Origin: Candidatus Paracaedimonas acanthamoebae
Lineage (GTDB): Bacteria > Pseudomonadota > Alphaproteobacteria > Caedimonadales > Caedimonadaceae
Direction: 5' to 3'
Assembly: GCA_000743035.1 (NCBI GenBank)
Contig: CP008936.1
Span: 1,380,001-1,412,000 of the forward strand
Length of the DNA: 32,000 bases
Shown one piece after another: positions 11,735-17,917 of this stretch. Each line of letters begins with the position of its first letter. Within the stretch, counting starts at the first letter, position 1. The notes beneath the pieces are model-generated. The model worked only from the letters and a program-made list of their open reading frames with translations. It did not search any database and was not told the DNA's origin. The position numbers and the translations under genes were made by a program.

Positions 11735-12415
11735 ATGCTAAAATTTTTTATTACTTTAGTTTTTATTACTTTTGTTTCCTGGCAGAATGATGGACATTCC
11801 TCATTTATTGAAGAGTTAAACGATGGTTCTTGTAAGATCACGTCTAAGCAGAAGTATCCTCAACAAGTTTTTGACGTCATTAATTTTATTAAAGATGTTC
11901 AGGAGAAATTAAGACAAATTGATAAAATTTCATCCCTTTCAATAGATTTATCAGGCGATATTTCTGTAAATTCAAGAAGTATAGAACTCCTATTAAATGA
12001 ATTAAATAGAACTTCTCTCCCTATACAGCTTTTAAATTTATCGCATACATCTATAGAAGCAAATATTATACAACTTTTATCAAAGAGTCGCATCAACTGT
12101 GTAGATATTTCTGATACAGATGCTGCAGAGAGCGAAGAATTAAGTTTTAATGAGCCTATAGATAAATTTATTTTTATTCCAGAGAGCGATCTCTATTTCA
12201 TTGAGAATTTAAATAAAACTACTTTAAATCTTCATCAAAGATATTATGATGAAAAAAATACCATACAAGGTATGACTGCTAAAAAGTATCCTTCAGTTGA
12301 AGGAATGATTATCCCTAATCTCGAGCGAGTTTGCGGCTTGACCAGCAGTTATGATTGCGGTGATAAAGGGTTAACTCTCCCCGCCAGCGCTCAAATTTGT
12401 GGCCTTACGGGTTGA
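11735..12415 (+). CDS. hypothetical protein with signal-like N-terminus and ribonuclease-inhibitor-type leucine-rich repeats
   Basis: 226 aa. ATG begins 1 nt after the TAG of the upstream gene. N-terminus is MLKFFITLVFITFVSW. About 28-residue LRR-like periodicity in LSIDLSGDISVNSRSIELLLNELNRTSLPIQLLNLSHTSIEANIIQLLSKSRINCVDISDT. The 3' end overlaps the convergent toxin-like ORF by 25 nt. Confidence 0.5.
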   Translation: MLKFFITLVFITFVSWQNDGHSSFIEELNDGSCKITSKQKYPQQVFDVINFIKDVQEKLRQIDKISSLSIDLSGDISVNSRSIELLLNELNRTSLPIQLLNLSHTSIEANIIQLLSKSRINCVDISDTDAAESEELSFNEPIDKFIFIPESDLYFIENLNKTTLNLHQRYYDEKNTIQGMTAKKYPSVEGMIIPNLERVCGLTSSYDCGDKGLTLPASAQICGLTG

Positions 12416-13314
12416 TTATTTTCAGAAGATTTAGTTGCATAACTCTTATGCTCTTTAAATAAAATAGATCTGATCTGTTTAGTCATTTCCATATCTTTAT
12501 TCCTGATACTTTTTAGTGTTGGATCTTGTTTATAAAGCTCTTGGGCGTATGCCTTTAAATTAGCTTCTGCTTGTTCTTTCTCAGCAGATGTGCGCGCAAA
12601 TTTTTGCTCATGTATAAGCGACTTAATTCTTTCAATGGGTGTATGCAAGAGAAGTGGTTTATCCTCATGACTCGGCGTTGTCAGAACCTCTGCTTTACTT
12701 TCCTCGGGCATAAATCCTCGATCTTTCCACAGTATCCCTTCCGGCAGCATGTCCATGTCCATCAACAACGGATGATCCTTCAACCACTGCCCCAGTTGAT
12801 ACGCTGTCATACCCGACAAACCCATCACAGCAAGCATTTCTGGTGTTAATGCTGATGCCAATGGAATTGTCCACAGGAAGTTATGATCGATCGCATTGCA
12901 CGCCGTGAAGATGCCGGTGCCTTTCTTAGCTCCCGTCAAAACCCCAATAAGAGAGCCTCCTACCTTGGCGATGTTGCCTCTAGCCTCGCGGGAAAGAGAG
13001 CTGGGCAAGGATTCTGCTGTCACTTCGGCCATCGTGGCCGCTAGGCCAGCCCCCAAAGCTTCTTTGATGTCCCCTTCTGAAAGCCCAAGACTCAACAAGA
13101 ACCCCGTGATAAAGTGCCCCCCCTTATGCGCCAAATAAGGAAGATCTCCCTTGTCATAAAGATCGCCTAAGTCCTTCGCAAGAACGCCGCCCACGGTGTT
13201 GATAACACAGGACTTAAGACCATCAAGCAAGGCCTCCTTGGGCTTCTCGCCCCCGATGAAGACCTGCAGAGGGGCGGAGACCATCGATCTCACCGCATTC
13301 AGATCCAACCGCAT
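12391..13314 (-). CDS. orphan, 5'-truncated polymorphic-toxin module: PT-VENN-like pre-toxin segment plus short C-terminal region
   Basis: 307 aa. Gly/Ala-rich segment ending GAKKGTGIFTACNAIDHNFL (12874-12903) resembles the ...AGKNAVENNYL pre-toxin/toxin boundary of CdiA-type toxins. The reading frame stays open 18 codons upstream of the first ATG, to 13368, with no delivery domain. By hand count the 5' part is ~57% GC and the 3' part ~27% GC. Confidence 0.55.
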   Translation of the reverse strand: MRLDLNAVRSMVSAPLQVFIGGEKPKEALLDGLKSCVINTVGGVLAKDLGDLYDKGDLPYLAHKGGHFITGFLLSLGLSEGDIKEALGAGLAATMAEVTAESLPSSLSREARGNIAKVGGSLIGVLTGAKKGTGIFTACNAIDHNFLWTIPLASALTPEMLAVMGLSGMTAYQLGQWLKDHPLLMDMDMLPEGILWKDRGFMPEESKAEVLTTPSHEDKPLLLHTPIERIKSLIHEQKFARTSAEKEQAEANLKAYAQELYKQDPTLKSIRNKDMEMTKQIRSILFKEHKSYATKSSENNQPVRPQI

Positions 13315-13452
13315 AAGAAACCTTCCCTTAAGATTGAGAGCATCTCTGAAGGAGCACTGCGGAATGATTTAATAAAGCCTTAAAGAATCTCTTAGTAGGA
13401 AAAGTATTAAAATTTTAATCTCTAGGAGAACAGGGAACTTTTACTTCATGCT

Positions 13453-13902
13453 TTACTCATACAGAGTATCAGTATGAAGCTTATATAAAAACTCTTCAAA
13501 GGTATCTGCTAACTTTATTTTTTCAAACCCAGAATCATGATCTGAGAGCCATACTTTTCCTTCTGGATCTATGCCAATGGGGTTACCTCTCCCATCATCT
13601 GAGACAATATACCAATCAGCTATTCCAGGCCATTTTTGAGAGCGATATAAATTTGTATTAGTTATAACAGAGTAATTCTTTACCATGGTATTAGTAGGTT
13701 TTAACCCATAAATATCATATGCAAAAGCACTACCACCACCATATTTTAATAAGTATTTGAGATAATTTGGATGGAATTTTACATTTAACGCGTTTTCAGC
13801 CCTTGCTATCTCTTCTTGGGTAGGAAGCTCAGAAGCTCTCCAAGCAGGCTCTTCCTCAAATTGCTGATCAAGAAAATCCCATATGCTTTCCACATTTCTC
13901 AT
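13453..13902 (-). CDS. SUKH-1 (SMI1/KNR4 family) immunity protein
   Basis: 149 aa with the typical SMI1/KNR4 layout: IARAENALNVKFHPNYLKYLLKYGGG..., ...IVSDDGRGNPIGIDPEGKVWLSDHD..., ...ADTFEEFL. Its ATG overlaps the stop of the upstream toxin gene (ATGA). Confidence 0.85.
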   Translation of the reverse strand: MRNVESIWDFLDQQFEEEPAWRASELPTQEEIARAENALNVKFHPNYLKYLLKYGGGSAFAYDIYGLKPTNTMVKNYSVITNTNLYRSQKWPGIADWYIVSDDGRGNPIGIDPEGKVWLSDHDSGFEKIKLADTFEEFLYKLHTDTLYE

Positions 13903-16820: not shown

Positions 16821-16925
16821 TTATCGCAGACGAGGGTTGATTAAGGAATATAATTGCTAATTAACCACTCTGCAAAGGCCTTGTCTGGCTTGTTTGACTG
16901 ATTCTTCTCTGCAAAAGCATAGCCT

Positions 16926-17303
16926 TCATTTATAATATATGATGCTTGTTCGGTAGAAGGTATATAATTTTTTTTCCTGATAAATATTAAACACAAGCTT
17001 TACTGCTTGTTCGTATAGAGAAACATCTTTTATAAGAATTGTTTCTTTCTTACTTAGTGCTGGACGCCCCTGAGGCACTAAATTTACTTGTCCAAGATCT
17101 TTTTCATCTAGAAACTCTAAAATTGAACATCCCAACACACTTGCAGCACGTTGTAGGATCTCTACATTTGGTTTTTGTGATCTTCCCCGAAGAATGTTTC
17201 TTATTGCATGGCCTTTTAACCCAGCAACTCCTTCCAATTCCGCTACAGAGTAATTCTTCTCTTCTATTTTCTTTTTGAGCTTATTAACAAGTACCCCACT
17301 CAT
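16926..17303 (-). CDS. XRE-family (Cro/C1-type HTH) transcriptional regulator
   Basis: HTH_3-like N-terminus: KKKIEEKNYSVAELEGVAGLKGHAIRNILRGRSQKPNVEILQRAASVLGCSILEFL. The start is taken at the internal ATG 17303 (MSGVLVNKL). The ORF track extends to 17327. Same strand as, and upstream of, the toxin array. Confidence 0.75.
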   Translation of the reverse strand: MSGVLVNKLKKKIEEKNYSVAELEGVAGLKGHAIRNILRGRSQKPNVEILQRAASVLGCSILEFLDEKDLGQVNLVPQGRPALSKKETILIKDVSLYEQAVKLVFNIYQEKKLYTFYRTSIIYYK

Positions 17304-17306
17304 AAT

Positions 17307-17917
17307 GTGCAATCCCTTGTTCAACAAAAGAGATTCTCAATGAGTCGCATTTGTGAAGTCCTTGAAGTCTCTCGCTCCAATCTTTATGAACGCTTAAAGA
17401 AGACATCAAGCTCTCGAAAGAGGAGTGTTACGATTCATGATCAAAAATTGCTTCTTCTCATTCGTCAGATCATGGATGAACGCCCCACTTATGGTTATCG
17501 GCGAGTAACTGCACTTTTAAGAAAATCTTTGAATCAAGCCATTAATCCAAAGCGAGTCTATCGCATTATGAAAGAACATAGCTTACTTTTACAAAAGCAT
17601 GGAAAGAGACCTGTTCGTGTTCATGATGGGAAAATCATTACTTTGAAGAATAATTTGCGGTGGTATTCGGATCATTTTAGCATTCAGTGTTGGAATGGAG
17701 ATCAGGTCCATGTGGTATTTGCTCTTGAGAGCCATGATCGAAAAGTTCTTGAGCAGCTATCAGAATGGTTCGATGATTATAATAATAATGCCCCTCATAA
17801 AGGGCTGAAAATGCTCTCACCAAGAAAGTATTACAGATCTTCCCAAGAAGATCTTAAACAAGTAAGGTATAACTTAATGAGCTAACAAATCTGTCCGCTT
17901 TTATAGGGGCAACTCCA
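17307..17917 (+). mobile_element. decayed IS3-family (IS2-group) element: OrfB transposase pseudogene with internal deletion plus right terminal repeat
   Basis: The 192-aa ORF matches my recollection of IS2 InsD (ERPTYGYRRVTALLRK...INPKRVYRIMKEHSLLL...NLRWYSDHFSI.CWNGDQVHVVFALESHDRKVL). It then jumps straight to the C-terminal YNNNAPHKGLKMLSPRKYY, so about 100 aa of the DDE core are missing (junction near 17750). No orfA is present. The sequence TATAGGGGCAACTCCA ending at 17917 resembles the IS2 terminus TATAGGGGCAAATCCA. Confidence 0.8.

Follow-up and report, generated by a model that had tools for sequence, protein, structure and literature searches.

A polymorphic toxin locus, probably decayed, in the Acanthamoeba endosymbiont Candidatus Paracaedimonas acanthamoebae

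Introduction

Polymorphic toxins with orphan modules have already been described in the Holosporales, in Odyssella thessalonicensis (Zhang et al., 2012; PMC3482391) and as the polymorphic toxin systems I-III of Candidatus Bodocaedibacter vickermanii (Midha et al., 2021; PMC8163844). The present text concerns a cluster of six genes on the minus strand, at positions 12391-17327 of a 32,000-nucleotide (nt) window, the whole stretch analysed (contig CP008936.1, positions 1,380,001 to 1,412,000), of Candidatus Paracaedimonas (formerly Caedibacter) acanthamoebae. This bacterium, a member of the Holosporales, lives as an endosymbiont in Acanthamoeba and has a genome of 1.72 Mb (PMC8163844, Table 1), which agrees with the reduced, host-associated background that the original prediction, made from the DNA letters alone, had supposed. 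The cluster encodes an XRE-type helix-turn-helix (HTH) protein, a 300-amino-acid (aa) protein ending in a toxin tip here called CT1, an Imm30 immunity protein, a 388-aa protein with an LHH-type nuclease tip, a SUKH immunity protein and a 307-aa chimera.

Like the orphan cdiA-CT/cdiI, Rhs and MafB arrays, the cluster presents variable tips that are each followed by a tightly coupled immunity gene. As in the orphan modules of contact-dependent inhibition (CDI) systems, there are 5'-truncated modules without a delivery region of their own and a VENN-like boundary (AIDHNF) after a pretoxin assigned to the DUF637 type through homologues, and the post-VENN segment, common to different tips here, resembles the CdiA-CT entry domain. 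In contrast to CDI loci, no cdiB/TpsB gene, two-partner secretion (TPS) domain or filamentous haemagglutinin (FHA) repeats are present in the window or its proteins, and Pfam found no ShlB/POTRA-type open reading frame (ORF) among those of at least 100 aa in the 32 kb. Moreover, the "main" gene itself appears internally deleted, the modules lie on what is read as a degraded conjugative island, and the sole module with a homology arm has no toxin. With respect to the general features of polymorphic toxins, tips common to different N-terminal trafficking regions are found for both CT1 and the LHH-type tip, and an immunity gene lies directly downstream in two pairs and not behind the 307-aa ORF; an N-terminal trafficking domain with a long repeat or filament was not found by Pfam or NCBIfam in the three larger proteins.

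Bodocaedibacter is likewise an obligate protist endosymbiont of the same order, with HNH-family nuclease tips and with a main toxin followed by immunity genes and orphan modules, for which an addiction role was proposed (PMC8163844). Its full-length multi-domain toxins are intact and transcribed, whereas the toxin here is reduced to a 300-aa stump plus tip, and its tips are AHH, HNH-HHH and MPTase5 as against CT1 and LHH here. In the Odyssella repertoire, Imm30 was noted, SUKH pairs with HNH-fold toxins and Tox-SHH is listed as the partner of Imm30 (Zhang et al., 2012; PMC3482391); the present locus, itself degraded, and four others have Imm30 behind CT1 instead. The cluster therefore represents no new class of system. 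It would document instead the erosion of a contact-dependent polymorphic toxin system in a reduced endosymbiont genome: the filament would have been removed by an internal deletion, homology arms lost, and a relaxase remnant fused on within a dying conjugative island. The toxin-immunity pairs have stayed intact despite this erosion, which fits an addiction-like persistence. In addition, the Imm30 family becomes linked to a large unnamed domain, CT1, whose predicted fold is confident and unmatched; it is the most interesting loose end of the locus and a target for toxin biochemists.

Organization of the Toxin Cluster

The cluster probably represents a CDI-like polymorphic toxin locus that has decayed, carried by a degraded conjugative island and left with two intact toxin-immunity pairs and one toxin-less chimera. 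The original CDI-like system would have relied on a large filamentous toxin with a signal peptide, a DUF637 region and a VENN motif. Gene 1 (300 aa) would be what a large in-frame internal deletion left of the former main toxin gene, its native upstream region kept and its signal-peptide-like helix and first ~106 residues joined directly to a linker and an intact CT1, which the translationally coupled Imm30 would neutralise. Gene 3 (388 aa) would be an LHH-type HNH DNase tip, orphaned and stripped of its VENN homology arm, that the overlapping SUKH protein neutralises; in gene 5 (307 aa), an orphan pretoxin arm, the traA 3' end of the island would have taken the place of the tip and the immunity gene, the fusion arising by recombination at a TPI microhomology. 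With the filament and any dedicated transporter gone, contact-dependent delivery would no longer be possible, and each immunity protein would restrain its toxin in cis. The pairs may persist as selfish addiction modules that stabilise the island, or the immunity genes may guard against related toxins of co-resident bacteria; Sec may still carry the 300-aa product across the inner membrane. The gene identities, homologies, toxin-immunity pairings and chimeric junctions are documented below, and from them we infer the order of events, the toxin activities and the present-day function. The genes and their parts are as follows.

15593-16495, minus strand: 300-aa ORF, probable internally deleted mini-toxin, homologous to locus L004 and the CT1 family
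16178-16495, minus strand: N-terminal 106 aa of the 300-aa protein
15995-16177, minus strand: post-VENN linker of the 300-aa protein
15596-15994, minus strand: CT1 tip of the 300-aa protein
15144-15590, minus strand: 148-aa ORF, Imm30 (Pfam, E 1.9e-16)
13899-15065, minus strand: 388-aa ORF, putative orphan toxin, LHH-type HNH/EndoVII nuclease C-terminus at ~13926-14171
13453-13902, minus strand: 149-aa ORF, SUKH (SUKH_5 E 2.1e-19; SMI1_KNR4 E 1.8e-17)
12391-13314, minus strand: 307-aa chimeric ORF, truncated pretoxin plus TraA relaxase tail
12874-13314, minus strand: pretoxin segment, residues 1-147 of the 307-aa protein, with its CNAIDHNF end at 12877-12894
12646-12873, minus strand: post-VENN linker of the 307-aa protein, common to the 300-aa protein and to toxins with other tips
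12451-12645, minus strand: remnant of the traA 3' end, residues ~225-289 of the 307-aa protein, C-terminal tail of a Ti-type TraA relaxase

All six minus-strand ORFs that had been predicted are present at the coordinates given for them, and the view of the cluster as polymorphic-toxin material with two tightly coupled immunity genes is upheld. The three toxin modules that had been counted are reduced to two, the 307-aa ORF having a relaxase tail in the place of a toxin and no immunity gene. Pfam matched the two immunity proteins directly but none of the 300-, 388- and 307-aa proteins, the last two of which are assigned to families through homologues; NCBIfam added nothing. In these three larger proteins Pfam also gave no FHA, RHS, LXG, PAAR, WXG or MafB domain, in line with the expected lack of a recognisable delivery domain. 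IM40_07350 and IM40_07360 match the 307-aa and the 388-aa protein, respectively, with 100% identity, and exact-sequence look-ups returned no record for the 388-aa, SUKH and Imm30 proteins. GC content at third codon positions is raised in the toxin genes (0.50 in the 307-aa, 0.36 in the 388-aa and 0.37 in the 300-aa gene, compared with 0.25-0.30 in core genes), which fits a foreign origin of the toxin-coding DNA; both immunity genes, at 0.26-0.31, look native.

The 300-aa Protein and Its Parent Toxin

The 300-aa ORF has a GGGAGG Shine-Dalgarno sequence 5 nt before its ATG. Its product contains a sole strongly hydrophobic segment, a signal-peptide-like helix at residues 15-36, and this helix as well as the His/Arg-rich C-terminus (GGRHRQTRTYG) had been read correctly from the letters. 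Residues 1-106 match the N-terminus of a 367-aa ORF in the metagenomic locus L004 with 51% protein and 71% DNA identity, the DNA homology reaching 60 nt upstream of the ATG; the same 106 aa also match the protein P0051. In L004, the 367-aa ORF runs into β-helix-like sequence and is interrupted by IS110, past which lie a 1469-aa protein with DUF637, the motif CNAIDNNF and a toxin tip, then a SUKH gene and the orphan module P0004. Taken together, the two ORFs of L004 indicate that the parent architecture was a signal-peptide toxin of at least 1,800 aa. No Haemagg_act or Fil_haemagg match was found in these two ORFs or in the proteins of the window.

After residue 106, the 300-aa protein jumps directly to the segment LPEGAEWQDEGF...TPI, which follows the VENN-like motif in the proteins P0033 and P0002 and in the 307-aa protein of the window. 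The N-terminal homology and the jump to a post-VENN segment together suggest that the 300-aa gene is the main toxin gene after an in-frame internal deletion, which would have removed the filament and the pretoxin and kept the expression signals, the hydrophobic N-terminal helix and the tip. Corresponding undeleted forms are known: P0148, of 2813 aa, is an intact DUF637 protein with CT1 at its end, and P0033 preserves the tip architecture of VENN, linker and CT1, followed by Imm30. The missing delivery domain would reflect the deletion or truncation of a large filamentous DUF637/VENN toxin rather than a new kind of small toxin.

The full-length toxin of L004 (2211-9321) is itself split by the IS110 element, and a DUF4280 (PAAR-like) gene lies ~7 kb downstream; large toxins of this type seem to be prone to disruption in that lineage too.

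CT1 and the Immunity Protein Imm30

CT1 comprises the last ~130 residues of the 300-aa protein. A word index yielded 36 homologues with 45-66% identity, and a profile search of 1.84 billion representatives yielded 679 clusters, 234 of them at E≤1e-30; among the best 150 of the 679, CT1 stands at the extreme C-terminus in every case, in proteins of 129-3847 aa. The N-terminal regions of its carriers are of the PAAR, LXG, PT-TG, RHS-associated and DUF637/PT-VENN kinds; those tested among the long carriers are the DUF637 protein of 2813 aa, RHS proteins and a protein that weakly matches haemagglutinin repeats. Pfam identifies the 148-aa protein as Imm30 (PF15565; 60.4 bits against a cut-off of 27, profile positions 4-95 of 98), and its gene starts 2 nt past the preceding TAA with an AGGAG Shine-Dalgarno sequence of its own, as had been noted from the DNA. 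Imm30 lies directly downstream of CT1 in all four of the other loci examined, namely a Bacillus cereus LXG toxin (L013), a VgrG-PAAR cluster (L014) and two metagenomic alphaproteobacterial loci (L001 and L008). The variety of carriers and the constancy of the next gene argue that CT1 is a bona fide polymorphic toxin tip and that Imm30 is its cognate immunity family.

CT1 belongs to no named Pfam family. It was considered as Tox-SHH, which did not hold: none of the 37 CT1 proteins matches that family at E≤0.1, and their signature is TP[H/N/D]H, not [SG]HH. The protein P0045 is named an ADP-ribosyltransferase at NCBI, an activity that the residue order and the largely helical model make appear unlikely. 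The AlphaFold model of CT1, built from 37 sequences (pLDDT 90, pTM 0.83), shows a β-α-β-α-β arrangement followed by three helices, for which Foldseek found no match in the Protein Data Bank (PDB; best E 1.5); sequence and profile searches of the PDB likewise gave nothing significant for CT1, the LHH tip or the relaxase tail. The CT1 of the window keeps all invariant or near-invariant positions (E9, H32, E55, G62-G63-R64-H65-R66, R82, Y96, Y102 and N117), and the invariant set of His, Glu and Arg-His-Arg residues suggests a nuclease-type enzyme. A bolder proposition, drawn partly from the model, is that CT1 is a new enzymatic toxin fold with Imm30 as its true cognate and that the 300-aa form is still exported as a weapon or acts as an addiction module; as a whole it is rather improbable. 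As such a module, CT1 and Imm30 would enforce the retention of the symbiont or the island, and the proposition, if true, would echo the killer-trait toxin and antidote of the sister genus Caedimonas.

Two further CT1 homologues deserve mention. P0030 (EukProt g9146.t1), a 234-aa protein with 58% identity, comes from a eukaryotic proteome dataset; its N-terminal region looks unlike those of bacterial carriers, and it could reflect symbiont contamination or gene transfer. In L008, the metagenomic locus of an unrelated organism, a short toxin made up of a signal peptide and CT1, together with its Imm30 gene (3431-5132), adjoins a tRNA-Cys/tRNA-Asn pair that is 78% identical to the pair at 19857-20078 of the window, and tRNA-adjacent insertion of a CT1-Imm30 cassette may be recurrent.

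The 388-aa Protein and SUKH

No Shine-Dalgarno sequence precedes the TTG at which the 388-aa ORF starts, its frame opens just 6 codons upstream, and the N-terminal ~160 residues of its product are unique and highly charged. The remaining 226 residues (163-388) are 39% identical to P0014 (E 8e-42), which passes Pfam LHH (PF14411) with 27.8 bits against a cut-off of 23.3 over model positions 4-76 of 76; the 388-aa protein itself has no LHH match at E≤1. P0014 and P0016 begin with AVENN, placing the LHH-type tip behind VENN motifs in those proteins. The predicted AYHH motif is present (LAYHH), and the HNH character that had been proposed for the C-terminus is specified through P0014 as LHH-type. 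In a four-sequence alignment (A5), H123, H124, H145, N149 and H153 are invariant and are all found in the 388-aa protein. The AF2 model of the tip, from the same number of sequences, reached a pLDDT of 45 and was not used for a fold test.

The 149-aa protein matches SUKH_5 (70.1 bits against 27) and SMI1_KNR4 (64.6 bits against 25.4), and its start overlaps the stop of the 388-aa ORF as ATGA, an overlap read from the sequence as predicted and indicating translational coupling. Imm-SUKH is a listed partner of Tox-LHH (Zhang et al., 2012; PMC3482391). Missing its VENN arm and provided with a poor start codon, the 388-aa ORF bears the marks of an orphan module, most plausibly one with an LHH-type HNH nuclease tip and SUKH as its immunity gene.

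The Chimeric 307-aa Protein

Residues 1-147 of the 307-aa protein are 78% identical to P0003 and to locus L005 and 47% identical to P0004 and to the 1469-aa toxin of L004. P0003 and the L004 toxin pass Pfam DUF637; the 307-aa protein itself matches neither DUF637 nor PT-VENN, its motif being AIDHNF rather than VENN. The ratio of nonsynonymous to synonymous substitution rates (dN/dS) of this segment against L005 is 0.13. The ATG is preceded, at a distance of 19 codons, by an in-frame TAA beyond which homology does not extend, indicating that the ORF is truncated at its 5' end; both this truncation and the CNAIDHNFL motif had been recognised beforehand.

The post-VENN linker follows, with a consensus of a moderately hydrophobic stretch and then LPEGxxWxDxGFxxEESKxxVxTPxHEDxPLxLxTPI. 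It is 53% identical between the 307-aa and 300-aa proteins and also occurs in P0002, with a different tip, and in P0033, with the CT1 tip. In the 307-aa protein the segment is only moderately hydrophobic. It may serve as a translocation or entry region.

Residues ~225-289 correspond to the last ~62 residues of Ti-type TraA relaxases, with 83% DNA identity to positions 521-715 of locus L006 and about 30 invariant columns in an alignment with P0005-P0011, among which P0008 matches TIGR02768 (TraA_Ti, E 1.3e-34). No relaxase or helicase domain of a Ti-type TraA occurs in the 307-aa protein besides this C-terminal tail. The junction falls at TPI, common to the toxin linker (TPIADP) and the relaxases (TPIERI), and the position and orientation of the tail relative to tRNA-Thr are those of the traA 3' end in L006. 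The ORF has no toxin domain, and downstream of it there is no immunity gene but a convergent ORF. Most simply, the fusion would be the scar of a deletion or recombination that removed a third tip, its immunity gene and most of traA.

The Conjugative Island

The elements that border the cluster are as follows.

8399-8474, plus strand: tRNA-Thr(CGU) (ARAGORN), putative left island boundary and attachment site
16926-17327, minus strand: XRE-type HTH gene as a 133-aa ORF, 16841-17327 when frame-corrected (Pfam HTH_3, E 4.6e-7)
17307-17885, plus strand: IS3-family transposase fragment (HTH_21 E 2.1e-15; rve_3 last 27 positions only)

The left third of the window holds nuoD-I, an MFS transporter gene and tRNA-Thr(CGU). 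The relative L006 (GCA_006365135.1) is collinear through nuo, MFS and tRNA-Thr with 79% DNA identity, and synteny breaks at tRNA-Thr. Past this point, L006 carries a phage-type integrase and a traA relaxase 3' end, and the window carries five ORFs without a family match, the toxin cluster with its XRE gene and the IS3-family fragment, a sign of decay at the far side. The region from 8475 to about 18300 is read as a degraded conjugative island integrated at tRNA-Thr, with the toxin cluster as its cargo. The IS3-family fragment is divergent to the XRE gene, with a 21-nt overlap.

The XRE ORF contains a -1 frameshift at an A8 tract (16968-16975), soon followed by a stop; the second frame runs for 51 codons. 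Removal of one A restores a 161-aa protein, residues 6-156 of which align with plasmid DNA-binding proteins. Homologues are found on plasmids of Megaera polyxenophila (pPCS201) and Rickettsiales bacterium Ac37b, and that on pPCS201 adjoins DnaA-like and Tra genes. No XRE gene lies upstream of the toxins in L004, L008, L013 or L014, a comparison from which L001 is omitted as its toxin stands at a contig end. The XRE gene appears to be a backbone gene of the mobile element and not a conserved part of the toxin array, and the description of the array as XRE-headed is abandoned. A pseudogene is the probable reading, unless the A8 tract conceals an error of sequencing; a slippery tract would be a further way to read it.

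Alternative Explanations

Several points weigh against the view of a decayed CDI-like locus. The LHH and DUF637 assignments are transitive, reached via homologues, the 388-aa and 307-aa proteins being unmatched themselves. The dN/dS values of 0.10-0.43 against the nearest relatives across the cluster ORFs are those of past purifying selection, and the ORFs lack obvious pseudogene decay; the coding sequences appear to have been under such selection for most of their divergence, although dN/dS says little on the period after the rearrangements. No att repeat was found at the far end of the island, where a copy of the tRNA-Thr 3' end was sought. The analysis covered the 32-kb window, and a full-length partner gene, a TpsB transporter or a type VI secretion system (T6SS) that uses these proteins may lie elsewhere in the genome. 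Finally, P0017 in L008, from another organism, independently has the short layout of signal peptide, ~120-aa linker, CT1 and Imm30, and small CT1 toxins that depend on Sec may therefore be functional by themselves.

This last point leads to the main rival, a small Sec-dependent toxin, which concerns gene 1 only. In its wider form, the 300-aa protein, with Imm30 beside it, would be a functional stand-alone small toxin, as perhaps would the 388-aa protein with SUKH; such toxins would be used against competitors sharing the amoeba and exported through Sec and then a type II secretion system (T2SS), vesicles or as cargo of a Holosporales T6SS. Besides P0017, the strong Shine-Dalgarno sequence, ATG, signal-peptide-like helix and intact CT1 of the 300-aa gene speak for it, as do the many CT1 proteins of 130-300 aa. 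Signal-peptide-only ("T2SS") toxins are recognised, Odyssella has been argued to compete with conspecifics (Zhang et al., 2012; PMC3482391), and T6SS is conserved in most Holosporineae (PMC11909080). Nevertheless, the N-terminus of the 300-aa protein is demonstrably the stump of a much larger protein, the 388-aa ORF has neither a signal peptide nor a Shine-Dalgarno sequence and starts with TTG, and many of the short CT1 entries in databases are contig-end fragments. Stand-alone function is unlikely, and decay of a large toxin remains the preferred explanation.

The modules might otherwise form a silent cassette reservoir, from which tips are switched by recombination into a full-length toxin gene elsewhere. 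Orphan modules do stand downstream of a main gene in L004 and in Bodocaedibacter (PMC8163844), and the 307-aa ORF retains 147 residues of pretoxin homology. However, this sole module with a pretoxin homology arm has no toxin, the LHH module is without a VENN arm, and the CT1 module shares only a 40-residue linker. Moreover, a scan of a genome collection gave one truncated relative (a Caedibacter metagenome-assembled genome) and no locus from the species of the window itself. A reservoir is quite improbable.

Host-directed effectors acting on the amoeba had been considered at the outset, since the symbiont is obligately intracellular and bacterial competitors may be scarce, and P0030 places a CT1 homologue in a eukaryotic proteome set. 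This idea is set aside as very improbable because both toxins have retained cognate immunity genes, tightly coupled and a mark of inter-bacterial toxins (Zhang et al., 2012; PMC3482391); in addition, neither toxin has eukaryote-type domains or recognisable features of effectors of type III or type IV secretion systems (T3SS, T4SS).

As to the 307-aa chimera, one more comparison may be drawn. In Alphaproteobacteria, the C-termini of relaxases and relaxase-derived BID domains plus tails carry T4SS signals. The BID domain plus tail of the Bartonella Bep proteins is such a relaxase-derived C-terminal secretion signal. The 307-aa protein is likewise a non-relaxase protein with a relaxase-homologous C-terminus, of the Ti-type TraA; in contrast to Bep proteins, the shared part is just ~62 residues with its extreme end replaced, a BID domain was not detected, and synteny points to a deletion scar and not to an evolved effector. 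That the tail is a coupling-protein signal re-routing the pretoxin or entry module as a T4SS substrate is very improbable, for although the in-frame tail is 65% identical to TraA tails over its last ~62 residues, has a dN/dS of 0.12 and belongs to an ORF with a plausible Shine-Dalgarno sequence and ATG, its final 12 residues are replaced, the protein has no cargo domain and the window no T4SS genes, the position and orientation match the traA 3' end of L006 as a deletion scar would, and the low dN/dS mostly reflects the history of traA. The reservoir, host-effector and T4SS-substrate explanations are possible but less supported than the decay of a CDI-like locus.

Neighbouring Genes and Other Observations

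Five consecutive ORFs on the plus strand (142, 283, 123, 291 and 226 aa; GC 30-34%), at positions 9113-12415, separate tRNA-Thr from the toxin cluster, and the last of them is convergent with the 307-aa gene, their 3' ends overlapping by 25 nt. Neither Pfam nor PADLOC matched any of the five; cargo of the island or effectors specific to the symbiont are possible identities. An anti-phage defence system was also considered for the locus and set aside, PADLOC giving nothing beyond a weak HTH match. DNA repeats between the modules amounted to short matches at chance level. A scan for promoters and terminators was uninformative, promoter-like sites being below the shuffle mean (9 versus 16.3) and terminator-like sites within chance (7 versus 4.8 ± 2.1). 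About 10 kb from the cluster and with no link to the toxins shown, genes for a secretin (553 aa, minus strand) and an A24 prepilin peptidase (193 aa, plus strand) within 25628-27950 indicate a type IV pilus or T2SS-like apparatus.

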